Positions 363-19,989 are shown, numbered from the stretch's first letter. The stretch: 20,000 nucleotides of DNA from an uncultured virus (IMG/VR IMGVR_UViG_3300010233_000006) (IMGVR_UViG_3300010233_000006), one strand, 5' to 3'. Numbers and translations are program-made. The notes: a model not told the origin generated them from the letters alone.

Positions 363-817
363 AGGGTACCTTGGACTGCACAACTTTCGGGAGATGCGGC
401 GAGTTCACGTTCAGGAAGTCCATCCCGCAATCGTCCACCATAAACGCGGGTGAACAGCAAGATCTCTTTGCGCTCGTCATATTCCATGAATGTCCAAATT
501 GGACCAGGCAGCTGTATCTTCGAATAATCGGGCCACGGTGAAGGCGGCGGCGATTGCCAGGGCTTTAAATCCATGAGGGCATTGTCATATGCCTGAATCG
601 TTGCCTCGGATGGCTGCGGATTCAGCAGGTCGAAGGCTCGCAAATCCAAAGCTTCCAGCGCGTGTCGGATTACCCTGTATGTCCCTGCCCAAACACACTC
701 GAACCTGATCCAGTATCCGATACAAACTGACCATTCTGCAAAATGCGTCAGAGCCTTAGGTGCGCTGCCGACCACCCAATTCTTCACGCCGCAGGTGAGC
801 AAAGATTCTTCTTTCAT
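359..817 (-). CDS. Hypothetical protein (152 aa)
   Basis: Start placed at ATG 817 (MKEESLL...), which forms an ATGA overlap with the glycosyltransferase stop; its own stop forms an ATGA overlap with the methyltransferase start. No recognisable motif. Confidence 0.65.
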   Translation of the reverse strand: MKEESLLTCGVKNWVVGSAPKALTHFAEWSVCIGYWIRFECVWAGTYRVIRHALEALDLRAFDLLNPQPSEATIQAYDNALMDLKPWQSPPPSPWPDYSKIQLPGPIWTFMEYDERKEILLFTRVYGGRLRDGLPERELAASPESCAVQGTL

Positions 818-1491
818 GCGGCACCCCACGCATATCCCGAAACGTCCGGGTTGGTGGCCAGTCGCATCCAAGGACCCTGCTCCGTCTTCCGCTCCGAAGT
901 GTTTCCAGAATGGACCGTGGCCACGAGGAATTGCTCTCCGTTCACATTGGCCAGTTGATTCTCGGCGGCGGCCCGGTAGCCAAAACCTTCATCCTGTCCG
1001 ATCTGTAAATGTTCAAACGGATGGGAAAGCCACCAGGACCGCAGAAAACAAAGCGAAGCGCCAAGCGCGATATTCACGCCACCAGGATACCGCCACCAGA
1101 TGGAATTGTCAGTAAAGCAGCAGGTGTGGTATGCCGACACGGCCTTGCCGCTTCCGACTAGCCGTTCCACCTGGTCTGTTAGGCGCCCTGGTGCATACCA
1201 GTCATCATCGTCCTGAATGGCGATTACTTCCGCGTCGATCAGGGAGCAGCCGAGGTTCCGCTTCTCTCCCATTGTCCGGGGCCGGGTATCGTTATCCACG
1301 ATGCACAGCGTAATGCGCGGATCGTCTGTGGGAACCAGGTCGCTCACGTCTTCCCCGTCCGCAAGGATCAGCAGGCGCTTGGCCGGATAGTCCTGCCATT
1401 GGAAGCAGCGGATCGCCTTCGGGAGCCATTGGCGACGGTTCCGAGTGCAGCAGAGGCAGGTGACTGTTGGATAGATTTCAAGGCCGGGCAT
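814..1491 (-). CDS. Glycosyltransferase family 2 (GT-A fold)
   Basis: PTVTCLCCTRNR...LPKAIRCFQWQDYP..LLILADG, MGEKRNLG and the DxD-type motif IAIQDDDDWYAPGRL. Confidence 0.92.
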   Translation of the reverse strand: MPGLEIYPTVTCLCCTRNRRQWLPKAIRCFQWQDYPAKRLLILADGEDVSDLVPTDDPRITLCIVDNDTRPRTMGEKRNLGCSLIDAEVIAIQDDDDWYAPGRLTDQVERLVGSGKAVSAYHTCCFTDNSIWWRYPGGVNIALGASLCFLRSWWLSHPFEHLQIGQDEGFGYRAAAENQLANVNGEQFLVATVHSGNTSERKTEQGPWMRLATNPDVSGYAWGAA

Positions 1492-2338: not shown

Positions 2339-5041
2339 TTACTGCGGGTTTACCAGCAAATATAGGTCGCACGCCTTGACCTGACCCCGTCCCGTCATGA
2401 TTGTGTTCGTCAGCGGGTACCTGCCGTTTGCACTTGCCCCCAACCAAGCACTAGCCGATTGTGTATCATTTGTTGGATTCGTGACCGGGACGGGAGGCGA
2501 TGCCTGCCAGGAGCTGGAGGCTACCGTATCGGTTCCGAGCATCGGTGTCCACAATAACTGGAAGTTTTCATTGCTCCTCGGATCCTTCTCGACCGGTACC
2601 TGGGTCGCATTCACGATGCCGGGGACGAGAGCAACGGTCAACGTCAGATTCACCACTTTGACTTCTCCCGAGTCCAGGTTGGCCAAGACTGAGATCAGAT
2701 AGGCTTGCCCGCTGGCTCCCCCTCCGATCCGAATTCGCGCCATGGGCAGCGCCAACCCCTGATCGGCCAGCGTGATGCCCGCAACCGCCGGCACCGAAAT
2801 CGAATTGATCGTAGTTATGCCCGCCAGGCCGGTCAGATCGATATCAAAGTCCTCGGTGCTCAGTGGATGCTTCAGCAGGTAGAGCATGACTTCCTCCTGG
2901 ACCATGAAAGAGCGCTGGCATACCGGCACGGGGATGACGTTTGATCGGGCGGCTACCGTGAAACTGCGTTGCAAGACCGGGACCGTTAGCAGCCGGATCG
3001 TGGCCGGTGTGATGTATCGGGCCAGTGTGGCAGCGAAGATCGCGAGTGAGACGTGATCCCGGAAGGTAACGAGCGGCCCGGCTCCAATGTGCGCTCCCAG
3101 CCCGATGCCGATCTGTGCCGCCGCCTGGAGGAAAGCCGCAGATTGGAAGCCCTCCGCAGATCCCAAAACAAGAACATCCCGCACGTCCAGACGAACGGAA
3201 TTACCGATTCCCGCCAGGAGCCCAAGCGTGGCCGAAACGAAGCCGCCTACCGCGACCCCAGCTTGGGCTGATGCCGCCACGCCTAAGCCGATCACATCGC
3301 TGTAGACTGTCGCCCCGCCGGGGTTCGCCGCAATTCCCTGGAGAATTCCAGCCGCAATGGCGCCCGCAATGACCGCCTGGGCATTTGCAGAAGTTCCAGC
3401 GGCAATTCCCAGGGGGGCACCGGCTTGCACGATGGCTTGGGATGCGGCTGTCGTAGCCTCCTGAGATCCCAGCGCAATGGCGCCCCGCAGAACTGCTTGC
3501 GCCGTGGTGACAGAGGCCGCCAGGATTCCGATGCCGACAGGACCGGAAAAGGCCGTGAGCAATGAATAGGAAAGGCCCGCCTGAACGCCCAGTCCAATCC
3601 CGTCCCGGATTGAGGCTGTCCCTGAATCTGTAGTGCCAGAGGATATTCCCAACGTTATGGGTACGCCGAATGCGGTCGCCAGGGCATCGGAAGTGGCAAG
3701 AAGTGCCCCCAGGCTCAGGACATCTCGAAATGTGGCGAAGTCCACTTCCGCAGTTCCGCCGGCCACGCCAAAAGTCAAGGCTCCGGAGAATCCGACGGCT
3801 ACCTGCTGGGCTGTCCCCGCCGCGACACCGAAAGTCAGCGAATCGTTATAAACGTTCGCCGCCACCATTCGGTAGGCCGCGAGGATAATGCAGGACACCG
3901 TGGCGCTCGACTCGGTGGCCGAGACGGTACCGCCCGCACTCGCCACAGTCTGATCTTCCCCCTCCGCCGAAAAGGTACCCGACCAGAGATTCCGCTGCGT
4001 CCAGCCACTGCCGCTGAACGCATCGCCTTCTCCTACTCCGAGAGCGATCACCAATTCGTTATTGTGTCCCGTCGTCAGGTTGGCGGTTGAGTGGCCGACC
4101 GTGCCGTCATCCGTAGCACTCGAGGTGGTGTCGACCGGTGGAGATCCGACAGTGGGGTATTCCAGGAATCCCGCGCCGGCTAACAGGATGCCGGAAGCCA
4201 CATTCCCAAAATCGACCGTCAATATAGGCCGATTGCCACCCGTTCCCACTACTGCGCTGTAGATCCAGGCATGGACTGCATGAGAAGAGGATGATGCCTT
4301 ACGTGTGGCGCTGACATCCGCGACGTAGGAATTGCCCTGGTTGTCCGAGATTGAGACGGAGCGGATCCAGGTAATCCGAGCCTGGCCGCGGGCACCGTTG
4401 CCACCGACTCCTCCCGTGGCCGCGGAGCCGCCACCGCCGCCACCGGGTGCCGCCCCATTGGCCCCACTGCCAATGCCTGCACCAGCACCGCCTGTTCCAC
4501 CGTTGGCACCATTCCCGCCGTCGCCACCGGTAGCACCAGCGGCCGAAACTCCAACACCGCCGGTAGTGGAAATCGTCGACGAAGCGCCCGCGCCGAAGGT
4601 CGGGGAGGAGCCGGTCCCCGGAGATCCCCCAGTTCCGCCGTCGGTTCCCGAGGGTACGGTGACCTTGTGTGTTGCTCCCTTGGCGATCAGGGAGTCCTGG
4701 TCTGTGTCCCCTATTGTGACCGTCAGCGCATCGCCCGGAGTGACGCTGAACGTCCCCTTGCCATAGCCACCACCACCACCACCGTCACCACCATTGCTTA
4801 CGCCGTCCCCCGGGCCACCGGTGCCACCCGCACCCCATACCTCGAAGATCACCTGTGTGCAACCGGTCGGAACCGTGACGCTGGTATCGCCGAGGGTCGT
4901 ATATAAATATTGATCGACCGATCCGCTCCAAATCTGAACTATCAGCAAATCCCCTGCTACGACATTCGAATCGAATTGCAGGGTATAACTGCTGTTGGGC
5001 GCCGGCCCGGCGATCTTGGACTGGATAGGGTCGTAGGACAC
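2339..5041 (-). CDS. Virion fibre-like protein: beta-rich N-domain with an inserted glycine-rich domain, ~20-aa repeat shaft, and two C-terminal fibre-adaptor-like domains
   Basis: 900-aa ORF with GTG start; Gly-rich block (VPTGCTQVIFEVWGAGG...GGGGGG); 20-aa periodic repeats; C-terminal LKHPLSTEDFDIDL and EKDPRSNENFQLLW domains; lies in the structural operon. Confidence 0.75.
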   Translation of the reverse strand: MSYDPIQSKIAGPAPNSSYTLQFDSNVVAGDLLIVQIWSGSVDQYLYTTLGDTSVTVPTGCTQVIFEVWGAGGTGGPGDGVSNGGDGGGGGGYGKGTFSVTPGDALTVTIGDTDQDSLIAKGATHKVTVPSGTDGGTGGSPGTGSSPTFGAGASSTISTTGGVGVSAAGATGGDGGNGANGGTGGAGAGIGSGANGAAPGGGGGGSAATGGVGGNGARGQARITWIRSVSISDNQGNSYVADVSATRKASSSSHAVHAWIYSAVVGTGGNRPILTVDFGNVASGILLAGAGFLEYPTVGSPPVDTTSSATDDGTVGHSTANLTTGHNNELVIALGVGEGDAFSGSGWTQRNLWSGTFSAEGEDQTVASAGGTVSATESSATVSCIILAAYRMVAANVYNDSLTFGVAAGTAQQVAVGFSGALTFGVAGGTAEVDFATFRDVLSLGALLATSDALATAFGVPITLGISSGTTDSGTASIRDGIGLGVQAGLSYSLLTAFSGPVGIGILAASVTTAQAVLRGAIALGSQEATTAASQAIVQAGAPLGIAAGTSANAQAVIAGAIAAGILQGIAANPGGATVYSDVIGLGVAASAQAGVAVGGFVSATLGLLAGIGNSVRLDVRDVLVLGSAEGFQSAAFLQAAAQIGIGLGAHIGAGPLVTFRDHVSLAIFAATLARYITPATIRLLTVPVLQRSFTVAARSNVIPVPVCQRSFMVQEEVMLYLLKHPLSTEDFDIDLTGLAGITTINSISVPAVAGITLADQGLALPMARIRIGGGASGQAYLISVLANLDSGEVKVVNLTLTVALVPGIVNATQVPVEKDPRSNENFQLLWTPMLGTDTVASSSWQASPPVPVTNPTNDTQSASAWLGASANGRYPLTNTIMTGRGQVKACDLYLLVNPQ

Positions 5042-5095: not shown

Positions 5096-5917
5096 CTATG
5101 CCGATGCTGCAGTCAACGTGACCGTGACGTGTTGATCTTGCACGAACTTGCGAGCCTCTTGTGGGGTGATTTTCGACCGCCTGCTCGTTGCTGAAAGAAT
5201 ACGGATAGTCACCCCGCACCCGCAGTGTGGGCAAAACTTCCAGGTAGCCTGCATACCTGCCTTACACTGAGGACATTCTCTCCCGCTGGCGTTGACACTC
5301 AGAGGCAACGTCAGGGCCTTTTCAATAGGCATACCCTTTCGCAATCGTGCTACGAGCACGTGAGAAGGAATCCCAATTTCAGCGGCCCATTCCCAGACGA
5401 ATTTACGCTCGCCTTCGAATTCTATTTGGCGGACATTGCGGCGGTTTCGCATCTGATCAGTGCGGCTGGCCCACCGACAGTTAGTTTTGGAATATGGGCC
5501 ATCATTGTCGATCCGGTCAAGGCTGGTATTCGTTGGCCGTTCGCCCATGTCAGCAAGAAATCCCTCGAAATATTCCCAACCAGGGTCATAGGAGATGCCG
5601 CGTCCCCCGTAGTTCGCGTATGAATTGTTATTTGGGTTGGTACACCGGCTCCGCATTGCCGCCCATGCAGTATATGTTGGAGTTTTTCTTCCGCGACGTG
5701 CCCAGCCATGGCGCTTGCGACCTGGATGGTCTTCCTTCCAGCATCCGCATGATTTAACCGAACTACAGATCAAGGCACTTGTGGGAACCTCGGTTATTGC
5801 TCCGCAGGCGCACTTGCACCGCCATCGCCTCTTTCGTTTACGGCCAACACCGCAGATTGGCTCAATGGCTGTCAGGCGGCCGAACGTCTTACCAGTTATG
5901 TCTATAGAACCTGGCAT
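5096..5917 (-). CDS. Free-standing HNH homing endonuclease-like protein with a C-terminal zinc ribbon
   Basis: DITGKTFGRLTA..WRCKCACG..SCGC, W..MRSRC.NP..YGGRGI, SLDRIDNDGPYSKTNCRWA..Q.RNRR; extra CPQC..CPHC motif. Confidence 0.9.
   Translation of the reverse strand: MPGSIDITGKTFGRLTAIEPICGVGRKRKRRWRCKCACGAITEVPTSALICSSVKSCGCWKEDHPGRKRHGWARRGRKTPTYTAWAAMRSRCTNPNNNSYANYGGRGISYDPGWEYFEGFLADMGERPTNTSLDRIDNDGPYSKTNCRWASRTDQMRNRRNVRQIEFEGERKFVWEWAAEIGIPSHVLVARLRKGMPIEKALTLPLSVNASGRECPQCKAGMQATWKFCPHCGCGVTIRILSATSRRSKITPQEARKFVQDQHVTVTLTAASA
5111..5130. repeat. 20-bp direct repeat, copy 1 (downstream end of the HNH insertion)
   Basis: AGTCAACGTGACCGTGACGT, identical to 5958-5977. Confidence 0.92.
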
Positions 5918-5942: not shown

Positions 5943-6452
5943 TCACGCGCTACTGGAAGTCAACGTGACCGTGACGTTGACGCTGTCGCCCGAGGCAACT
6001 CCGCGTGGGGTAGCGAAATCGGCAACCCCGTAGAGCGTCCCGGCGGTCCCGCTTTTGGTGTTGTCTGTTACCACGAAGGCCCCTGCAATGGTGGCCGTAC
6101 CGTTGATCGAAAACACTGCCTTCGAGGCCGAATTGTCTACCGATTGTCCCGACACCGCCCCGAGCGTCAGCGTCTGCCGAACGGTTTCCGAATATCCGGT
6201 CGCTTCCGACCAGGCTCCATGGGAGGCCATCGTATCGGCCGCTACTGCGGTTCCGGCACCCTTCAGGCCGACGTAGAAGGCTGCCGTGTAGGAGGCCCCC
6301 TTGAAGTACTTGGAGAGGATGTCGTTCAATCCCACATTGACGGTGAGATTGTCAATTTCCTCGGTCCACTTCAGGCGTCCTTCCGAGTCGAAGCAGTCGA
6401 TGCGGTAGGTGTTTTTCACGGCCAGGGAGGCCTGGAAAGATTCGTTCTTCAT
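5943..6452 (-). CDS. Phage virion structural protein (fibre-associated, beta-rich)
   Basis: KW.EEIDNLTVNVGLNDIL...FYVGL...DTMASH.AW.E.TGY...GAF...GTLY...F...R.V.SGD..NVT pattern, which I recall from phage neck/fibre gene clusters; AAGGA upstream. Confidence 0.75.
   Translation of the reverse strand: MKNESFQASLAVKNTYRIDCFDSEGRLKWTEEIDNLTVNVGLNDILSKYFKGASYTAAFYVGLKGAGTAVAADTMASHGAWSEATGYSETVRQTLTLGAVSGQSVDNSASKAVFSINGTATIAGAFVVTDNTKSGTAGTLYGVADFATPRGVASGDSVNVTVTLTSSSA
5958..5977. repeat. 20-bp direct repeat, copy 2 (3' end of the 169-aa structural gene)
   Basis: AGTCAACGTGACCGTGACGT, identical to 5111-5130. Confidence 0.92.
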
Positions 6453-8695: not shown

Positions 8696-9805
8696 CTACC
8701 GCGCCGCCAGGGCGACGAACGGAGAAGTGGGCGTGCTGCCATTGGCCGGGGTTACGGCAGCATTATCAAGCGGACCTCCTGTTGCCCGGAGAATAAATCT
8801 GAAAATTTGCTGGCCCGATTCGAACAAAACGTGGACCGACACTTCACCTCGCAGCCGTTCCCGCATGGCTACCACATAGCGGCTGAAGTCTGCCAGGACG
8901 ACATCGCCCGGAGTTCCGGCCGCCTGACAATACTCCGATGGAAATGCCGGAAGTCCGCAGAGCCAATCGTGGCCCGCATCGTCCGAGAAGTTGTACTGCC
9001 AGGAATTCGATTGGCTACCGGCTGTTCCCACGATCGTAGTCAAGCCGGTCAATTGCGGGAGAAGGTCCGTGTTGTACAACCAGATCGCGTTCTTGCGGGA
9101 GGGTGCCCACAGGCTGGACCGCATCTTGGTGACATTCTGATTGATGACTGTTCCCGATCCCTGCCCTGCCTCTTTGGCCACCGTCACGGTTGCTGGTGCG
9201 TTGACCACTCCTAGCGGTTGCCCGGCACCGGTGCCGTTCACGATGAGATCCTCCAGCCGAAAGGTCAACTCCATGGAGAATGCATAGGTGGCCCAGGAAG
9301 TCAAGGCATCGGAGTCCATGGCCAGTTCATCTGTGAGTTTCAGAAGCCCGATGATCTTCTTAGGCGTGAGTGACGTTAACTGGAAATCCGGGAGAGTGGA
9401 AGGTGGCGTAACGGCTTCGGGCTCCACAAAGACCTGAATGCCGCCCAGACGGCTACCAGGTGCACGCGAGGTTTCATTGAACTGCGGACATTTGATGCTC
9501 TGCCGCTGCACCGGCATCTCGAAACAGCGTCCCAGGATGTCGCCGACGAGGTACGAGCGCCGGACAATCTCGCGAGAAAATTCAGGAGCCACCAGGAATC
9601 CGCCGCCCGATGGCAAGCCTTCCGAAGCACCGGCCGCTGTCGGACCCGCGGCGCGTTTCTGGACTTCGAGTAGGCGTGGATCGGGCGTGCTACCCGGATT
9701 CATGCCGAACTTCGCCACGGCATGCAACTGCTCTCCAAACGAACGGAACGGGCAGTCCTCGACGGCACGGATTGGCTCGAGCCGGGGAATTGATTTGGGC
9801 ATCAT
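8696..9805 (-). CDS. Second HK97-fold major capsid protein paralog lacking most of the N-terminal delta/scaffold domain (369 aa)
   Basis: GASEGLPSGGGFLVAPEFS, KKIIGL..LTDEL..DS, IVNGTGAGQPLGVVN, GDVVLADFSRY, SPFVALAAR, colinear with the upstream MCP; AGGAG 10 nt before ATG 9805. Confidence 0.93.
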   Translation of the reverse strand: MMPKSIPRLEPIRAVEDCPFRSFGEQLHAVAKFGMNPGSTPDPRLLEVQKRAAGPTAAGASEGLPSGGGFLVAPEFSREIVRRSYLVGDILGRCFEMPVQRQSIKCPQFNETSRAPGSRLGGIQVFVEPEAVTPPSTLPDFQLTSLTPKKIIGLLKLTDELAMDSDALTSWATYAFSMELTFRLEDLIVNGTGAGQPLGVVNAPATVTVAKEAGQGSGTVINQNVTKMRSSLWAPSRKNAIWLYNTDLLPQLTGLTTIVGTAGSQSNSWQYNFSDDAGHDWLCGLPAFPSEYCQAAGTPGDVVLADFSRYVVAMRERLRGEVSVHVLFESGQQIFRFILRATGGPLDNAAVTPANGSTPTSPFVALAAR

Positions 9806-9843
9806 GATGTGAGATCTCCTGATCAACAAGTGAAGAGAGGGAA

Positions 9844-10737: not shown

Positions 10738-12129
10738 TTACCGAGTGTCCAGGCAGACGAATGGACTCTGGGTATTCGAACCCTGCGCCGGCGTCAGCGT
10801 GGTTTTCCACCACGGTTGCGAATCGGTGCGGTAGATCCACCGATAGACCATTTCCGACGTCAGAAATCTGACGTGCATGGAAGTCGCGGTCTGAAGATCT
10901 CCCTTGTCTATCATCAGTTGTTGGCTGAAGTCGCACAGCATCACATCGCCGACAGTCCCGAGGGTTGAGGCTTGCTCGATGTTGATTACCGGGCGCCCGA
11001 AGAGTGTGGCATAGGGCGTGCCGGCCGCGCCCGTGGGCGGAAGATACACCGGCAATCCGCCGACGCCGACGACCTGACCCATCCCGTAGAGCTGCTGCTC
11101 GACATCCTGATTGATGAACCAGACCGCGTTCAACCGGGACTTGCTCCACATCCGGCCCCATGCCTTCTTGATGTTCTCCCATACGACGGTCTGCGCAGCT
11201 TGGCCGGTTTCCTTCGTGATCTTAATCAGGCAGTTTGAATTCAGGATGCCAAGCGGTTGGCCCGCACCGGTTCCCCGGATCATCGCGTCGTCCAGTTTGA
11301 ATCCGAATTCCTGCGCGAAGGCGGTCATCACGTAATTGCCCAGGAAGTTTTGATCGGCGAGTAGTTCATCGGTCGCGTAGAACAGGCCCGTCAGTTTTTT
11401 GAGGACCATCTCCAATATCGCGAAGGTGGGCTTACTGCCGACGAGCGATTGGGCTTCCTGCTCCCACATCATCTGAATGCCACCATTGCGGAAACCGTCT
11501 TTGCGCGACTGCTCGTCTACGGCCGGAATCTTCATTGCGTTCGTGAATTCGGCCAGTGGCAGTTTTCGTACGCGCGGGTAGATGAGCCCGGTGTCGTGCG
11601 CCAATTGGAGCAATTCCTGCGCAAATGAGGGAAACACGAGGAATCCGCCGTCTGATGGCACGGCTTCGGAGGCGCCAGCCGCCGCCGCGCGCTTCTCGAA
11701 TCCCTCGTTGAGCGCATACAGTCGGGGATCTCCCTTCTGTCCGGTGATCTGTCGCCGCTCCGCGTTTCGCACTTCGGCGAGAAATTCACCGAATCCACGG
11801 GAGATGCGCCGCAACCGTTGGTCCTTCGATTCGGCTGTCGGCTCGTCCGCTATCCACGGCTTGTCCAGCACATTGTCGTAGACCCGCGCCGGCTCGCTCC
11901 TTGGTCCCGTGCTCCGGTCGCTCGGGATGTTGGTCAGGGTGGCCATCCGTTCGGTTGCGTCGATGGTTGCCTGAATGTTGGCTGCTTCGGCGGTGAAGCC
12001 TTCGAACTTGGTGCGCTCTTCCGCCGTCATGGCTGCCCGCTTTTCGGTTTCCATTGTGGCCAGAATGCCTTGGGCCGAATCCAGCGCGGCAGCCTTACTC
12101 TGTCGTAAATCGAGCAAACGATTGCTCAT
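10738..12129 (-). CDS. Major capsid protein, HK97 family, with N-terminal coiled-coil delta domain (463 aa)
   Basis: Start reassigned to ATG 12129 (MSNRLLDLRQ) with AAGGAG; helical N-terminus, then GASEAVPSDGGFLVFP, KKLTGL.YATDELLAD, GTGAGQPLGILN, TLFGRPV, SPFVCLDTR. Confidence 0.96.
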   Translation of the reverse strand: MSNRLLDLRQSKAAALDSAQGILATMETEKRAAMTAEERTKFEGFTAEAANIQATIDATERMATLTNIPSDRSTGPRSEPARVYDNVLDKPWIADEPTAESKDQRLRRISRGFGEFLAEVRNAERRQITGQKGDPRLYALNEGFEKRAAAAGASEAVPSDGGFLVFPSFAQELLQLAHDTGLIYPRVRKLPLAEFTNAMKIPAVDEQSRKDGFRNGGIQMMWEQEAQSLVGSKPTFAILEMVLKKLTGLFYATDELLADQNFLGNYVMTAFAQEFGFKLDDAMIRGTGAGQPLGILNSNCLIKITKETGQAAQTVVWENIKKAWGRMWSKSRLNAVWFINQDVEQQLYGMGQVVGVGGLPVYLPPTGAAGTPYATLFGRPVINIEQASTLGTVGDVMLCDFSQQLMIDKGDLQTATSMHVRFLTSEMVYRWIYRTDSQPWWKTTLTPAQGSNTQSPFVCLDTR

Positions 12130-12338
12130 AGGTCTGTGCTCCTTGTGTAAGTAATTTGCCGCGGAGTTACCGCAGGCTGAAAGATAGCGTGCTGCTGAGA
12201 AGGTACTGCTCGGTGGCGCTGGCTGCACGCTGGAGCCTGCGTCAAAAATCTTGAAATGCTTCTTGAAGATCGGAAAACTGGAAGTGCTGAGTCCTCTAAG
12301 ATGGGCGAACGAACACGGGCTGCTGTTCTGCTGAAGGT

Positions 12339-14525
12339 CTAGCGGAGCCTCAGTATTGCCAAGCGGCCGGCATCGAAATCCATGGAATTCGAGAGTGCTG
12401 CCTGTTCAGACTGTACTGAGGCCTCGGTGTCCGCATAAGCCGGAAACGATACAATGCTCGCATCCCGGAGTAGTGCTCGCTCCACAACCCGAATGCGTTC
12501 TCCGTCTCTTGTTTCAAACCGAAACTTAAGTATCCAAAAGGAAGCTGATGAAGCAGACACGTCATTCCTGCGCAGTAGACAGAGAACATCGTCCGCATAG
12601 GACGTTTCCGGGAGATCGGCCTCGGCATGTACGCCATCTACGGCATCCCAAAAGCGCGCAGTTCCAGAAGATTGTCGGCCGAGGACGTATTTATCGTCAT
12701 GGCCCCACAGCACCCTCGGATCTTGATTCAAACCCTGCGAGAAGGCACCACGCTCATATCGCTCCTTGAATCCTCCAAGATCAATGGACGTGGAATCTCC
12801 ATACGGTGCCACAAACAATGATACTTTCCTACCATTTTCGGGAGCTGTTGCCGATCTGCCCGCAAATCGCCGCACCGCCAGGATCACACCCGGTTGCCCA
12901 AATAGGCCCTCACTGGAAGCCTTAGGATATTCATAATCGGCCCATCCACAGCCGCTTTTGTTGAATGCGTATTGGATCAGCGTTGGCATATGCTGGGATG
13001 CATCTGCGTGGAACACGTCGGCGCGGAGTGCGTCGGCCAGTCGGTCGGCAATGCTGGCCGCGTCAACAAATGCCAGCGCCAGTTCCGCTTCGCTCTTCAA
13101 GTCTGGAGCTTCGAGCCCGGCATCCTTTAGGTGCTTCGCCAGGTGCGCGTGAACTCCCTTACGGTCGGCTGCGGGAATCGTAGTTCCTCCACGACCGCCG
13201 TTAAGATTTCCAATTCCGGCTTGGCATGCTTTGATATTGGCAGCCCCGATACTTCCGCTTTCGGAGACTTCGTGATGGGGGAATTTAAATTGCACCTTTT
13301 TCGTGCCATCGCTTCCATTCTCCTGCCAGGCATAGGCCCTGCGGTAGTAGGCGGCATTCTGATCGGACTTCAAGCGCGCTTCGTTCGCTGGTCCGTCCCA
13401 GGACTTGTCGGAGGTCGCGGTCTTGTGGGGGGGGATGGCGCCGGCCTGGATGTTCGAAAGATCGTGAACGGAGTTCACAATCTGAGTGTGCTGAACGCCT
13501 TCCGCATCGGTATAACTGACGCTCAGGATAGTGCCCGTTCCAAGAGCAGCAGACATCATCTCATCGTCAGGAGGGTCCTGATCGTTCGATTCGAGAGCGG
13601 CCGTAGCGATCTGGCCCCGCAAGTATCCCAGGGCATCATCCACGGTCCCTACCGCATCGCAGAGCAGGGGCATACCCGTTTCTGCCGGGTAGCAGCCGGC
13701 CTCGGTGGCATAGAGGTCGTCGGCTGAGACGCCGCGGCTCTTGGCTACGGCGTTCACGAAGATGGCTTGAATCCGGTCGCACTGATCCTGCATGTCCGCT
13801 TCGGCACCACTGGACAGGGGTTCAAAGGGATTCCCATCCACTTTTTTCTTGCCGGCGAAGATCAGGGTGACTTTGACCCCGGCCTCTTTATACATCTCGC
13901 TGAGGTCAACATGGGCACTCCAGCAGCCGATCGAACCCGTGCCCCCCACGCTGGTTACGAACAATTTTGGGGCGGTCGAGGCGAGGCAGTAGGCCGCCGA
14001 GTAGCACTGATCCTTCGATATTGCGGCGGTGGGCTTGGTGGCTGCGAGGGATCGGAGGAGATCAGTGGTTTCAATCCAGTCCGAGCACGCTTCTCCGCCA
14101 GGGGAATCGTAGCAGAACAGTACACCTTTGATGGAGCTATCCGCATATGCATCCTCGGCTAGTTCGGCCAATTTCGAATACGTCATGAACCAGTAGGACT
14201 TCGGCACCAGGGGACCCCGCACCGAAATGCACGCGATTCCGTCCTCGGTTACCGGATATGGTTTCTCGTCGGGCTGGTCATCGTCCTCGTCATCATCATT
14301 CCAGGTCACCACGGGAGAGGCGATAGCACGATCCACCAGACTCTTGTAGGTCTTCAACTCCATCGCCCATGGGAGCGTGAGGATGCGCTCCGATTCCAGG
14401 AAATGTGGCCGGCGGACCTTCGGAGCTACGAGAACCAGAGATCCATCGGTCGAGCTAGCGGCCAGTGTGGGATCCAGAATGGGCGTCGGCGGCTTGGCTG
14501 CTGTCTTGGTGAATTGCAAAGCCAT
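12339..14525 (-). CDS. Prohead maturation protease fusion: S49 (SppA/lambda gpC-like) + uncharacterised middle domain + S78 (HK97-type)
   Basis: S49 motifs YDSPGGE, CYSAAYCLAS, GTGSIG, AGKKKVDGNPF; S78 motifs GGFKERYERGAF, VLWGHD..VLGR, DVSASSASF, LRDASIVSFPAY. Confidence 0.9.
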   Translation of the reverse strand: MALQFTKTAAKPPTPILDPTLAASSTDGSLVLVAPKVRRPHFLESERILTLPWAMELKTYKSLVDRAIASPVVTWNDDDEDDDQPDEKPYPVTEDGIACISVRGPLVPKSYWFMTYSKLAELAEDAYADSSIKGVLFCYDSPGGEACSDWIETTDLLRSLAATKPTAAISKDQCYSAAYCLASTAPKLFVTSVGGTGSIGCWSAHVDLSEMYKEAGVKVTLIFAGKKKVDGNPFEPLSSGAEADMQDQCDRIQAIFVNAVAKSRGVSADDLYATEAGCYPAETGMPLLCDAVGTVDDALGYLRGQIATAALESNDQDPPDDEMMSAALGTGTILSVSYTDAEGVQHTQIVNSVHDLSNIQAGAIPPHKTATSDKSWDGPANEARLKSDQNAAYYRRAYAWQENGSDGTKKVQFKFPHHEVSESGSIGAANIKACQAGIGNLNGGRGGTTIPAADRKGVHAHLAKHLKDAGLEAPDLKSEAELALAFVDAASIADRLADALRADVFHADASQHMPTLIQYAFNKSGCGWADYEYPKASSEGLFGQPGVILAVRRFAGRSATAPENGRKVSLFVAPYGDSTSIDLGGFKERYERGAFSQGLNQDPRVLWGHDDKYVLGRQSSGTARFWDAVDGVHAEADLPETSYADDVLCLLRRNDVSASSASFWILKFRFETRDGERIRVVERALLRDASIVSFPAYADTEASVQSEQAALSNSMDFDAGRLAILRLR

Positions 14526-14535
14526 GGCGATCTCC

Positions 14536-15015
14536 TTAGAGTTTCTCGGCGATGTATTCGGCCTCGTCCATTGCCTCGATCAAGCTCAACTGCTGGGCCA
14601 GCCATCCGACATGGCTTTGATGCCACTTTAGCAAGTGCTCGATCAGGTTTCTGGTCGTATCGTCCAGCGCCTTCATGGCCGTCTGAATTGTCTGCTCATA
14701 GGGAGCGACAATCGCCAGTTCCAGGCTGAGTTCGTTTTCGAACATGGCCGTCAACGTTTCCGACTCCATGATTCCAGACACCGGGTAGTTGAGCTTACCA
14801 CCGAGGAAGAGCAGCCGATCGGAAACTTTCTTGGCCCAGCAGTGAGCGTCGTCCCCGAAGGAATGCAGCTTCTTGGCGGTCTTCTTCACGCCGAGAAACT
14901 TTGCCAGCCGCCAATCCGCTCGATATTGCGCATTGAGGTGGACCTCTGCCGAGACTGCCAATTGCAGCGCCACCAGGACATCGGGATTGCCGGTGATCGG
15001 TGTACGGTTCGTCAT
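14536..15015 (-). CDS. bfr: Bacterioferritin-like protein with a non-canonical ferroxidase centre
   Basis: Aligns by eye end to end with E. coli Bfr (G...V...L......E.....QY; RLLFLGG; MFENELSLE; D..TR..HVGWL..QL.LI..M...EY); AAGGAG RBS. Confidence 0.88.
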   Translation of the reverse strand: MTNRTPITGNPDVLVALQLAVSAEVHLNAQYRADWRLAKFLGVKKTAKKLHSFGDDAHCWAKKVSDRLLFLGGKLNYPVSGIMESETLTAMFENELSLELAIVAPYEQTIQTAMKALDDTTRNLIEHLLKWHQSHVGWLAQQLSLIEAMDEAEYIAEKL

Positions 15016-15045
15016 ACTGAAAATCTCCTTCGGCAGTTCAGTTTT

Positions 15046-16329
15046 CTAATGCGCAAGGCCGTTCGGCTTCGACTTCGGCGCTGGGGTCGGCACGATTTTC
15101 ATATCTCGCGGAGCGGTTTCGGGGTTTCCCCCTTCTGGCATCATGTTCACCGGGGTCCAGTACGCCTTGCCTATCCCATCAGGCTGGGCATTCATGTCAA
15201 GCAGGCCCTCTCTGATTTCATCTGCGTTCATGATTCCCCATTGGCGCAGGATAGCGATCCACTTTCCCATGGCCTCATGGTTGCCACGCAGCAGATTCAG
15301 ATAGTTAAATCTGGTGAAGATCGTCCGGAATTCCCGCGCGGACAGGAGCGAGGCATGCGTCTCCGATTCCCAGTTAGTGGTCCAGCGATTGAGAGAATAC
15401 AGAACGTATTCCAGGCTCAGCTCTTCGATGTTGTTGTTGGTGGCCCGGTCGAGCAGCCCGACGCGATGCTGGGGAACTCCATAGATCCGGCAGATGGCTT
15501 GTGCGGTGAGACCGGCAGTCTTGATGAATTCCGCGTCCACCATGTTGGATGCGGTTTCCTTATAGGTGACCCCCTCCTCCAGGATTGCGATGCGATACGC
15601 ATTGTCAAGTCCCTGGTGGCTCTCTGCCCAGTCCTTCTTGAGCCGTAAGAAGGCAGCGTCATCGATTTTCTGCGGATGCGTTAGCATGCCCCGAGGCTCA
15701 GCCGAGTTGCCGAAATATCTGGCACCATGCTCCGTGATAGCCATGTCGAGGCCGATTCGCTGCCGGTGGACTTCGATGGGAGAAAGCCCCGTTACGCCAT
15801 CGACCGACAATCCGCGCAAATGGAAAATCCGGTCGCCCGGCAAGGTGAACGGCTTCCCGTCCTGCATCTTGTACGTATACTGGAGCGGACCACCTTTATA
15901 TTGCCGGGTGATCTTCACCCGATCCGGGCGCCAGGGCCACAAAGCGGTAACCTGGCCGCGCCCATTGATCTCGATCTCGGCATAGGCATTGCCGTTCAAG
16001 CCCACCCATGTCTGCATCAGGTGGGTATACCGCCAGGCCGTCATTTCGGGATTCGCCTGGTCCTGCAACAAGCCCCAAAGATAGTGCTCGGTGGCGCGTT
16101 CTCGCCCTTCTTCCGTGCGCCGATATGTCATCTGGGGCATCGTGGCGATATCACTCGCCAGGGCGTCGACACAGGCCCAGACGGTATCCACTGCTAGGGC
16201 ACCGGTTTCCGAGACGAGCTTGCCGGTATAGGATGGTTGGCCCCCGAACTGTTGGTCAAGCAGTCGATCGAAATCCGACAGCGACATGCCAGCCCCAACC
16301 TGCTGTGCGGCCCTCCTTACAAGATTCAC
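15046..16329 (-). CDS. Portal protein, HK97 family
   Basis: TVWACVDALASDIATMP, ANPEMTA, LNGNAYAEI, IFHLRG.SVDGVTGLSPI, ICRIYGVP.H.VG, NNIEE, GIMNADEIR; GTG start with GAGG. Confidence 0.97.
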   Translation of the reverse strand: MNLVRRAAQQVGAGMSLSDFDRLLDQQFGGQPSYTGKLVSETGALAVDTVWACVDALASDIATMPQMTYRRTEEGRERATEHYLWGLLQDQANPEMTAWRYTHLMQTWVGLNGNAYAEIEINGRGQVTALWPWRPDRVKITRQYKGGPLQYTYKMQDGKPFTLPGDRIFHLRGLSVDGVTGLSPIEVHRQRIGLDMAITEHGARYFGNSAEPRGMLTHPQKIDDAAFLRLKKDWAESHQGLDNAYRIAILEEGVTYKETASNMVDAEFIKTAGLTAQAICRIYGVPQHRVGLLDRATNNNIEELSLEYVLYSLNRWTTNWESETHASLLSAREFRTIFTRFNYLNLLRGNHEAMGKWIAILRQWGIMNADEIREGLLDMNAQPDGIGKAYWTPVNMMPEGGNPETAPRDMKIVPTPAPKSKPNGLAH

Positions 16330-16460
16330 TGATCCCTCGTTTCGGAAATGGCCGTAGCCTTGGCCCGGCGTACTTCTGCTGATCTTATCAGGGCGTTCTG
16401 CGATGGGGTATGGCCGCTAAGTATACCCTGTTGCGCAGCTCGACGGACGATATTAAACAT
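16326..16460 (-). CDS. 44-aa mini-ORF resembling the portal N-terminus
   Basis: Manual translation MFNIVRRAAQQGILSGHTPSQNALIRSAEVRRAKATAISETRDQ; its TGA overlaps the portal GTG (GTGA). Confidence 0.5.
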   Translation of the reverse strand: MFNIVRRAAQQGILSGHTPSQNALIRSAEVRRAKATAISETRDQ

Positions 16461-16495
16461 GCGAATTTGGATTCGGAGTTTAGTTATGTCAAACT
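16461..16495. promoter_or_regulatory. Possible overlapping divergent sigma70-type promoters
   Basis: Plus strand TTGGAT(16467)-17 nt-CAAACT with an extended TG, pointing at the RNA at 16505; minus strand TTGACA(16492-16487)-17 nt-CAAATT. Both -10 boxes are weak. Confidence 0.3.
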
Positions 16496-16504
16496 TGTTG
16501 TTCT

Positions 16505-16635
16505 GGCCGGGTAATGCCTGAGATGGCCTCGGGCGGGCAGGACGCAGAATAACTCCAGCGGCGAGAGCGTCACGCCACAGCCCCTACTGTCTCGCTGGGA
16601 TGGTGGGGCGGCGGTTCGAATCCGCACACCCGGCC
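16505..16635 (+). ncRNA. tRNA-like expanded cloverleaf RNA (~130 nt), antisense to the late operon
   Basis: Closing stem GGCCGGGT/ACCCGGCC; hairpin GCCTGAG/CTCGGGC; GACGC/GCGTC arm; long GCCCC..GGGGC arm; T-arm GCGG-TTCGAAT-CCGC; G-U wobbles favour the plus strand. Confidence 0.6.
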
Positions 16636-16657
16636 CTCGAAGGAGTCTAGCGATTAA

Positions 16658-16969
16658 ATGTTCCCTACTATCCTCTATGACTACGTGGTCCCTGGCGAGG
16701 TGGAAATGGCGACGTTCTATCCACCGGAAACGGCAAATGCATGGAACGGTGAATGGCATCGTCTGGATGGTGGCCATTTCATCCGATACCTTCCTACCTT
16801 TTGGGGTGGTGGCTGCTTCCAGCATGCGAGACCGAACAATCGGGATCGAGGCTTGGCGACATCCTATCCCGGTCTTTGTCTTCGCTGTTCTTCCGCCACC
16901 CGATCAGCGGATATCAGAAACGAAATCCAGACTCCTGAGATTCCACCGACAATCGGTCCCAACGGATGA
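16658..16969 (+). CDS. Hypothetical protein downstream of the tRNA-like RNA
   Basis: AAGGAG about 12 nt upstream; occupies otherwise empty sequence, but its 3' third overlaps a minus-strand gene. Confidence 0.4.
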   Translation: MFPTILYDYVVPGEVEMATFYPPETANAWNGEWHRLDGGHFIRYLPTFWGGGCFQHARPNNRDRGLATSYPGLCLRCSSATRSADIRNEIQTPEIPPTIGPNG

Positions 16970-17127
16970 TACACCATCCATGCCCCGTACGAAATCGAAG
17001 CCATGCCACCGAAGAAGAAGACCTGCTCCAGGACGGCCGGCACGATGGCCGTCACCTTCTGGCGCGCCTTTGTGGCAGCGCGCTGGAAGGCACTGAAGCC
17101 GCGGTGGACGGGAATGATGGAGGTCAT
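16864..17127 (-). CDS. Small membrane protein (two hydrophobic segments), of the kind often found between terL and portal
   Basis: VFFFGGMASISYGAWMVYHPLGPIVGGISGVWISFLI; ATGA overlap with the upstream ORF. Confidence 0.75.
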   Translation of the reverse strand: MTSIIPVHRGFSAFQRAATKARQKVTAIVPAVLEQVFFFGGMASISYGAWMVYHPLGPIVGGISGVWISFLISADRVAEEQRRQRPG

Positions 17128-18235: not shown

Positions 18236-19989
18236 CTACAGGAACCGAATCCCCCGTGTCGAGTAGACCGATTGGAATGGCTCGGGCATCGTCAGGGCTC
18301 GATTGAGTGCCATGATAAGAGCCACAGCCCCATCGATCTTATTCTCTTCCCGCTCTTTCCGCGGGTAGATGTTGTCTTTGAGGTCCCGCCAGCAGACCAC
18401 ATTGGAAATCTCCCATCCCAGGATCGGATCGCCATTGTGGTGGAAGCGGCCCTCGAGAACGACGGCCTCCAGTTCCTTCATGGGCGCCGAGAAATTCTGG
18501 ACGTTGGCATCCAGCGCGACTAGGAGAACGTTTTGATTCCAATCCGGCCGCGCCCGCATGACTTGGAGCAGCGGTTCCGACTGGTAGGGATCGTGCGGGA
18601 TCTCCCGTACCACAAAACGCTTCACGTCCTCGATCAGGCCATCTGCGATCCAGTTCAGGTCTGTGACATTCCCCGGGGTGACGGTCAGCAATTCATCATT
18701 CTGCCAACCCTGGTAGTGGATACCCTTGGACACGGCCGCTTCGTTCAGATAGTGCTCGGCGAAGGCGTAGTAGTGAACCTTGGGCTTCCCGTCCCCATCT
18801 GGAATCACCTTGCGAAACAGCCGTACTTTCGCTGCGATATCCACCCGGCTGGCCAGATCCACCCCGATCCAGCATTCCTGACGCTCGAACTCTTCGATCT
18901 TGAGATTGGGGTCGCCGCATCGGTCCCAGGCCACCATGTTCATCCAGGCAACCGCTGCGTTTACCCAGACGTTCAGGTGCTTCGTCTTGAAGACGTTTTG
19001 CTTGCGGGCGCTGTTGATCGCGTCCCGCTGCGCATCCAGCAGAAAGTCCGGTGAGACTGAGACCCCATAGTTCGGGTTGGCCTTGATCAGCGCCGCTTCC
19101 GAGGTCCACAGGTCAGTTTCATCAACCGTGTAGATCAGAACGAATAGCCGGTCGTTCTGAATCTTGCCTTCGAGCACCTTCTGGCAATCGATCTGGAGTG
19201 CGTAGCAGGGCCCTGATCGATCGCTGCCGGCAGTAGTGATGACCAGTAGGAGCGGCGATTGGCGCGCCCCCATCCCGGTTTTCATCGTGTCGTAGAACGT
19301 GTCGTCCGTGTGTTCGTGGTACTCGTCTACGATTGCGCAGGAGGGTGAGGCACCATCACCAGGCTTACCAATAAGCGGCTCGAAGCGGCTCCCATTCGCT
19401 GCGATCACCAGGGACTTAGCGTTGATCTTGACCCCGAAGGCCTCCCGAAAGTCGAAAGTGCGTTCGGCCATCTGCTTGGCCGGCCGAAATACCTCCCATG
19501 CCTGCTTCTCCGTGGTGGCCCCGCTATAGACTTCTGCACCGAACTCTCCGTCGGCCGCAAACTTGTAGTTTCCGCTCGCGGCAGCCCAGGTGGATTTGNN
19601 NNNNNNNNNNNNNNNNNNNNNNNNNNNNNNNNNNNNNNNNNNNNNNNNNNNNNNNNNNNNNNNNNNNNNTCGCTCCGACTGGCCCAGACGCCCTTCGTGT
19701 GGGGCATGCTCTCGATGAAACGGCAGGCCCGGTGCGCCTTCGCCGGATTGTAGCGGTATTGCCAGTCGTCGCGTTCCAGGTCCCGGAAGTGGCGTTCGCA
19801 GGCCAACTTCACCCATTTGCACGCGGGGATCAAGTCGTCCAGTACATCACGCGCGTACTGGTTGGCCTTCTCGGAATAGCCCGGCGGGCTCGGCGGCTTA
19901 GTTCGGCTTGTTCGGGTTGAAGAGGTCGGTGATGCTTTGGCCTTCGTCGAGGTTCGCGAACGGGTTCTTCTTGTCGGGTTCTGGGACAA
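18236..19989 (-). CDS. terL: Terminase large subunit (interrupted by an assembly gap)
   Basis: N-terminal ANQYARDVL...ACKWVKLACERH...FIESMPHTKG, gap, then KSTWAA (end of Walker A), EVYSGATT..QA, AIVDEYHEH (Walker B), LLVITTAG, IGVDLASRVD, HNGDPIL.W, KIDGAVALIMA. TTG start at 19989 is tentative. Confidence 0.95.
19599..19669. other. Assembly gap (71 N)
   Basis: Run of N; explains the apparent frame change within terL. Confidence 0.99.

Follow-up and report, generated by a model that had tools for sequence, protein, structure and literature searches.

The window, a stretch of 20,000 nucleotides from an uncultured virus (IMG/VR IMGVR_UViG_3300010233_000006), carries a minus-strand module of phage structural genes. 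The module opens with the large terminase gene (18236-19822), followed by three small ORFs, the portal gene, a gene for a bacterioferritin-like (Bfr-like) protein and a protease gene. Beyond the protease lie a capsid gene (10738-12228), a second capsid paralogue (8696-9829), a head-tail adaptor and an HNH endonuclease, and the module ends with a 900-aa protein containing a GP4-type fibre-tail adaptor domain, a head completion protein and a family-2 glycosyltransferase. The Bfr-like ORF (14536..15015, minus strand) runs from an ATG at 15015 to a TAA at 14538-14536 and encodes 159 amino acids; the plus-strand frame of 14536-15015 is interrupted by a stop. Direct reading of the sequence places a Shine-Dalgarno-like AAGGAG (15025..15030, minus strand) 9 nt before the ATG. 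The upstream neighbour is the portal gene (15046..16329, minus strand; PF04860, E 5e-90), separated from the Bfr-like start by 30 nt. The gene downstream (12339..14525, minus strand) encodes a prohead protease of 728 aa that has both an S49 and an S78 domain; the AAGGAG of that gene (14532-14537) overlaps the Bfr-like stop codon. Promoter-like sites were absent from 12000-17000, as were terminator-like sites beside the Bfr-like gene.

Several of the neighbouring genes have features of their own. The 728-aa protease joins an S49 (ClpP-like) domain, residues 160-299, to an S78 prohead protease domain, residues 577-709, in a single ORF; the same S49+S78 fusion occurs at the related locus L019, and at L003 and L020 S78 and ClpP occur in the opposite order. 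The two major-capsid paralogues, of 496 and 377 aa respectively, both belong to PF05065 and are 38% identical over 359 residues, with a 176-aa ORF of unknown family between them; several related loci have a single capsid gene. The HNH endonuclease (5096-5917, minus strand; phrog_374, E 1.8e-61) has a C-terminal zinc ribbon and lies amid adaptor and tail genes. The family-2 glycosyltransferase (814-1491, minus strand), which adjoins the head completion gene (1667-2050) at the end of the module, might glycosylate virion proteins. The C-terminal domain of the 900-aa protein (2339-5041, minus strand) is like the podophage GP4 fibre-tail adaptor gp77, and a 169-aa ORF (5943-6452, minus strand) weakly resembles gp80, a fibre protein of the same phage; a podovirus tail of the GP4 type is hinted at.

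The 159-aa protein is a true bacterioferritin homologue, far beyond chance, as had been proposed from an alignment by eye. It matched Pfam Ferritin PF00210 with E 3.6e-12 and 46.9 bits against a cut-off of 24.5, an assignment at the superfamily level, and its TIGR00754 equivalog score was 58.5 bits, below the NCBIfam Bfr cut-off of 125.55. Its matches among solved structures were almost only bacterioferritins (best E 3.3e-11). The best of these aligned query residues 8-156 with Bfr residues 2-151 with a single 1-residue gap, and in E. coli 1bcf residues 16-151 aligned with query residues 22-156. When the profile of the family (60 sequences) was compared by hhalign with that of 28 canonical Bfr representatives, the probability was 99.94%, with E 5.7e-37 over 157 columns. 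The AF2 model (pLDDT 94) has four long helices (11-41, 44-70, 88-115 and 119-149) and a short C-terminal fifth (151-158), and in Foldseek it matched solved Bfrs, including 5xx9, with TM 0.93 and rmsd 1.0 Å. The best Dps-like PDB match had an E of 0.089 against 3e-11 for Bfr, which places the protein outside the Dps group. No PHROG family, PADLOC model or enzyme family matched it.

Three alignments, to PDB structures, between profiles and by AF2 superposition, all yield the residue equivalences of the original prediction. Conservation was assessed among the window protein and 59 relatives of 44-67% identity, obtained by a word-indexed search. The retained residues are E24 (Bfr E18; codon 14944..14946, minus strand), which is Glu in 58/60, Y31 (Bfr Y25; 14923..14925, minus strand), Tyr in 54/60, E99 (Bfr E94; 14719..14721, minus strand), Glu in 58/60, and H135, the equivalent of H130. 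The last of these closes the segment H132-Q-S-H135 (Bfr E127 to H130; 14611..14622, minus strand), in which H132 is found in 56 sequences and H135 in 44. The predicted losses are equally clear in the three alignments: E51 is replaced by A57, H54 by W60 and E127 by H132, so that both bridging glutamates are gone. The haem ligand Met52 is replaced by H58, and the EMKH of Bfr (E51-M52-K53-H54) becomes A57-H58-C59-W60 (14836..14847, minus strand). Position 57 is Ala in 47 of the 60 and Asp or Glu in none; position 58 is His in 56; position 60 is always aromatic (Trp in 27, Phe in 26, Tyr in 7) and never His.

With both bridging glutamates and one histidine replaced, that is three of the six ligands throughout the family, the canonical di-iron ferroxidase centre cannot form, in agreement with the original prediction. 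A mononuclear Glu/His metal site, which had also been suggested, is plausible from the residues that survive; since H135 occurs in only 44/60, a fixed 2-His/2-Glu site would not be universal. D55 and D56 were considered as replacement bridging ligands; at 27/60 and 44/60 they are too variable and therefore unfit for that part. In 26/60 relatives, the window included, Cys59 directly follows His58 (A-H-C-W), and under two-fold symmetry the pair could form a His/Cys cluster at the dimer interface.

The strongest conservation lies elsewhere. The invariant residues of the family are R36, P105, E107, A116, D118, D119, R122, N123, E126, H127 and K130, and those from D118 to K130, at the start of helix D (14626..14664, minus strand), are present in 60/60. 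In the family alignment this helix-D stripe is the best-conserved part of the protein, and it is new relative to Bfr. The geometry of these sites was derived from the alignment together with helical periodicity. On that basis A57, W60, H132 and H135 would face the bundle core, H58 would be directed sideways, away from the core, as Met52 is, and D119, N123, E126 and K130 would form a stripe opposite the core.

Helices B and D line the ferritin cavity. The median net charge of the family is -3 compared to -12 in canonical Bfr, and the shift falls mainly in these two helices, which carry +4 and -1 in the family against 0 and -5 in the 28 canonical representatives. If B and D face the cavity here as well, the acidic interior on which iron mineral nucleates has been lost. 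Cage assembly in Bfr is reported to need R30, K33, R61, Y114, E128 and E135 (PMC3179174, PMC9439638). Four of these six are retained in the family: R30 as R36 (60/60), K33 as K39 or R39 (60/60), R61 as R67 (59/60), and E135 as E140 (54/60), although the protein encoded in the window carries Ala in that last place. The equivalent of Y114 is D119, Asp in 60/60, and that of E128 is position 133, which is Gln in 35 and Glu in 25. The change of Y114 to Asp, the Gln at the E128 position in 35/60 and the Ala in the window protein mean that cage assembly may differ or fail. NYLQ is described as the four-fold-pore motif of Bfr (PMC12120770). In the Bfr-like protein its position reads E153-Y154-I155-A156, within the short C-terminal helix of residues 151-159 (14539..14565, minus strand; consensus EAEYIAEKL).

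Selection on the gene was estimated by the Nei-Gojobori method on genes from the loci, with 59 of 351 pairs giving usable dS. The dN/dS ratio was 0.07-0.22 in 15 pairs with dS of 0.07-0.85, more divergent pairs being near saturation. The substitutions are family-wide in 60 sequences, conserved and not random, and the purifying selection rules out decay, as the original prediction had argued from the intact ORF.

The position of the gene is constant. A scan of viral contigs found 27 loci with close relatives of the Bfr-like gene, one of which starts within that gene and was left out of the slot count; three loci from metagenome-assembled genomes (MAGs) have the identical terminase-portal-Bfr-like layout. 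In 29/29 assessable loci the Bfr-like gene comes directly after a portal or MuF gene. An HK97-type portal lies immediately upstream in 21 viral loci (tblastn with window proteins), a lambda-family portal in four and MuF in one (Pfam). The genes downstream encode S78, ClpP, S49 or S49+S78 proteases, or a protein of ~690 aa with a terminal capsid domain. Among the window and 26 loci, many of them near-duplicates that represent about six lineages, the Bfr-like start overlaps the portal stop (ATGA) in 15/27 and lies 2-31 nt past it in 9/27, including the window (30 nt); L010, L011 and L014 are the exceptions. Similarity to the window's counterpart is 54-66% for the Bfr-like protein compared to 24-50% for the portal, and the Bfr-like value is the higher in 21/21 loci.

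Close relatives are rare outside viral sequences. Among one genome each of 185,579 species they occur at three loci only, with 64, 56 and 46% identity, in MAGs of Bryobacteraceae, Ca. Acidoferrum and Terriglobia, one of them within an 823-kb contig; the other 45 hits of that search were at most 33% identical. INPHARED phages yielded two records only, annotated bfr and 24% identical, and no close relative among cultured phages. The Atlas cluster that holds the Bfr-like protein is 61% viral. The family is phage-specific and linked to Acidobacteriota. One of the three MAGs, all of which are incomplete, also codes for a canonical Bfr (EEMGH...EEEH); this is the Terriglobia MAG, and its Bfr is 24% identical to the window protein.

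When 1.84 billion representatives were searched with a profile, 1501 reached E <= 1e-3, and 20 of these E <= 1e-30. Sequences were called rewired when they lacked an acid at position 57 and had H127 and H132, and canonical when they had E-M-x-H...E-x-x-H; the best 150 hits included 35 full-length rewired and 28 canonical sequences. One rewired subfamily, P0100, is 30% identical to the window protein and is present at 72 viral loci. Its gene follows a lambda-family portal in 7/7 loci examined, within 30 nt in six and at 1.25 kb in L122, and precedes the gene for a capsid-domain protein of ~750 aa. A third rewired subtype (L085) follows an HK97-type portal. In the lambda-portal carriers L086, L099, L101, L109, L124, L146, L122, L022, L025 and L030 the next gene encodes a protein of 690-810 aa, of which the last ~300 residues are Phage_capsid_4; the first ~400 have no Pfam match and presumably represent a protease or scaffold fused to it.

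The gene is optional within its slot. The window's own portal had no relative among the viral contigs. Portals of ClpP-type carriers found 585 loci, and of the best 80, 65 had at least 1.5 kb of downstream sequence. A ferritin-like ORF was present in 3/65, all of them lineage mates 97-98% identical, and absent from 62/65; in L160, whose portal is 58% identical, portal, ClpP protease and capsid genes follow one another with nothing between. None of the best 80 loci had a second ferritin ORF besides the Bfr-like gene. In a maximum-likelihood tree of 28 rows, with host Bfr as an outgroup on a very long branch, the copy in a MuF module (L011) is sister to copies in HK97-portal/S49 modules (L016 and L017) with support of 99/99, and the lambda-portal copies form one clade (99/100). 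The optional presence and the tree placement together indicate an accessory cassette, mobile among head modules, which nevertheless lands in the same slot. Optional presence is moron-like; the promoter and terminator of its own that a moron would carry were not found, and the gene abuts or overlaps its neighbours.

Comparison with known systems defines what is particular to the phage family. With bacterioferritin (TIGR00754/PF00210; S. coelicolor 5xx9/7y6f, E. coli 1bcf) it has in common its length, the five-helix fold, E18, Y25, E94, usually H130, and the equivalents of R30, K33, R61 and E135. It differs in having Ala for E51, Trp, Phe or Tyr for H54, His for E127 and for M52, Asp for Y114 and EYIA for NYLQ, in its smaller negative charge and sub-equivalog score, and in being found only in phage head operons. 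In the Bfr/Ftn of A. baumannii (9bts), subunits are reportedly specialised by loss of a cofactor site and assembled in mixed cages. A similar arrangement is described for hetero-Bfr subunits of S. oneidensis (SoBfr12, 9iig), in which one cofactor site is lost and the cages are mixed (PMC12120770). Both 9iig and 9bts are among the structure matches of the window protein. In hetero-Bfr subunits either Met52 or a complete ferroxidase centre survives, and a partner bfr adjoins the gene, whereas in the phage protein both sites are altered; the His at position 52 and the portal and protease neighbours do not fit a hetero-Bfr haem subunit.

For viruses, bfr is reported as an auxiliary gene for iron storage, in a Bathyarchaeia virus (PMC10904782) and in a preprint (bioRxiv 10.64898/2026.05.02.722434), and a Dps-like protein of phage G (gp346) is reported from particles (PMC12484599). 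The Bathyarchaeia-virus bfr, Nitrosospira phage roc1 and gp346 are likewise virus-borne members of the ferritin superfamily, one of them reported to be under purifying selection. The accessible parts of those reports present them as host-like proteins that store iron or protect DNA, and mention neither a rebuilt centre nor a portal-protease slot. Within the available article text of the literature, no account of either feature was found. What is new here is a phage-only family with a fixed portal-protease slot, carried as an optional cassette, with a lost acidic interior and an invariant helix-D stripe.

The loss of negative charge in helices B and D, together with the absence of a di-iron centre, leaves no iron-oxidising or iron-mineralising store, and the protein almost certainly does something other than iron storage. 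As a tentative explanation, and one for which there is a real though less than even chance, we favour a Bfr-type dimer or cage without ferroxidase activity, whose task in late infection would be to bind metal ions singly and to buffer or deliver them, not to store iron. From the layout, the gene is predicted to be transcribed late together with the head genes, and its translation would often be coupled to that of the portal gene. The product would assemble into Bfr-type dimers or cages, and single metal ions would be bound at the surviving site formed by E24, E99 and H132, with H135 where present. Metal may also be bound along the invariant polar stripe of helix D. Late in infection, metal would then be buffered or handed over. 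Against such a path for metal, the invariant stripe could instead be a protein-binding surface.

The fixed slot in the head operon and the tight coupling to the portal gene recall a different possibility, that the protein is a passenger of the capsid, either packed into the procapsid or bound to the portal vertex, and so travels with the virion. Encapsulins are HK97-fold shells with ferritin-like cargo encoded beside them, and the cargo bears a targeting peptide as well as an active site for iron oxidation. The Bfr-like gene also adjoins HK97-type shell machinery, although in a real phage locus with terminase, portal and tail genes, and its product has a rebuilt site and none of the marks of encapsulin or head cargo, namely a targeting peptide, a leader or fusion to a head protein. 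There is no extension beyond the Bfr fold, and the relatives start at the Bfr-like MxGNPEV. No C-terminal motif is common to the Bfr-like protein and the adjacent proteases at 18 loci, nor was a fused longer homologue present among 863 candidates, which is weak evidence. On the other side, BFVD matches include long uncultured-Caudovirales proteins with a ferritin-fold stretch (TM 0.66-0.78), named in UniProt 'Prohead protease' (333, 432 and 763 aa) and 'Dps' (290-679 aa); these models suggest ferritin-head protein fusions in other phages. The Dps-like protein reported in phage G particles also speaks for a passenger (PMC12484599). The gene is optional, and its sequence is conserved across three families of portal and two of capsid, a range of surroundings that a partner binding the capsid would not be expected to tolerate. 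A passenger role is unlikely. A more specific form, in which tailed-phage heads carry a ferritin-fold nanocage, built together with the head proteins into the procapsid or at the portal, whose neutral-to-positive lumen would bind phosphate, nucleic acid or metal, seems quite unlikely. Nor is it likely, to much the same degree as a capsid passenger, that the protein is a dominant-negative or modifying subunit that joins host Bfr or Ftn and alters iron storage or release, as the original prediction had also suggested. The contact residues R30, K33, R61 and E135 are retained, the Terriglobia MAG with the related prophage codes for a canonical Bfr, and natural hetero-Bfrs are described as mixing subunits no more than 45% identical, extra subunits joining according to their expression level (PMC12120770). 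The identity to the Terriglobia Bfr is only 24%, however, a canonical Bfr is coded in just one of the three searched, incomplete MAGs, Asp takes the place of the three-fold Y114 in 60/60, the four-fold NYLQ has become EYIA, and conservation is highest in a stripe peculiar to the family rather than at the shared interfaces.

The His at position 58 had raised the further prospect that a pair of these residues across the dimer ligates a b-type haem, making an electron-transfer cage with shifted potential. H58 does stand at the Met52 position in 56/60, and, like Met52, it would be turned outwards from the bundle core. In Bfr, F26 and I49 line the haem pocket; their equivalents here are R32 (56/60) and the mostly polar position 55 (Asp in 27/60), so that the pocket would be polar. 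In the 30%-identical subfamily the residue aligned with H58 is Glu. E. coli Bfr variants M52H and M52L are reported to be free of haem (PMC3184983), and a structure that by its entry title is the M52H variant (8w8z) ranks 26th among the fold matches; in that case the change is single and engineered, in contrast to the natural His and rebuilt centre of the phage family. Haem binding between two histidines is thus disfavoured on the residue evidence and appears very unlikely. A role outside those of ferritins, though on the ferritin scaffold, either as an enzyme with a new His-rich site (H127, H132, H135, E24 and E99) or as a protein that holds a conserved host target by its invariant helix-D stripe, for example in counter-defence, would fit a stripe kept whatever head proteins surround the gene, an accessory cassette exchanged between modules (L011 with L016/L017), and the persistence of H127 and H132 in 35 rewired representatives while helix-B positions vary. 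We consider it rather improbable, given that no enzyme-family or PADLOC match was found and that the whole Bfr architecture is kept, including a fifth helix that an enzyme or adaptor would not need. Finally, it is scarcely credible that this is just another auxiliary bfr for storing iron, or one in decay, even though viral iron-storage bfr genes are reported (PMC10904782, bioRxiv 10.64898/2026.05.02.722434). The replacement of Met52 and of three among the six ferroxidase ligands is itself conserved, the equivalog threshold for Bfr is not reached and the acidic interior seems to be gone; purifying selection rules out decay.

What defines a ferritin is its di-iron centre and its acidic cavity. 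Both have been rebuilt under strong selection in a virus-borne branch of two subfamilies and more than 100 viral loci, which is wired into the head-assembly operon of phages of soil Acidobacteria. Should a cage still form, it would be a natural nanocage with a new interior chemistry. Were it carried in the head, the encapsulin-style combination of shell and ferritin cargo would be a property of real viruses, and the cage would be a natural one with interior chemistry inverted in comparison with all known ferritins. If the protein is borne by the virion or meddles with host iron, it would represent a new accessory function of phages in iron-rich acid soils. Either way, the label 'bacterioferritin, iron storage', which several sources give to its relatives, is misleading.
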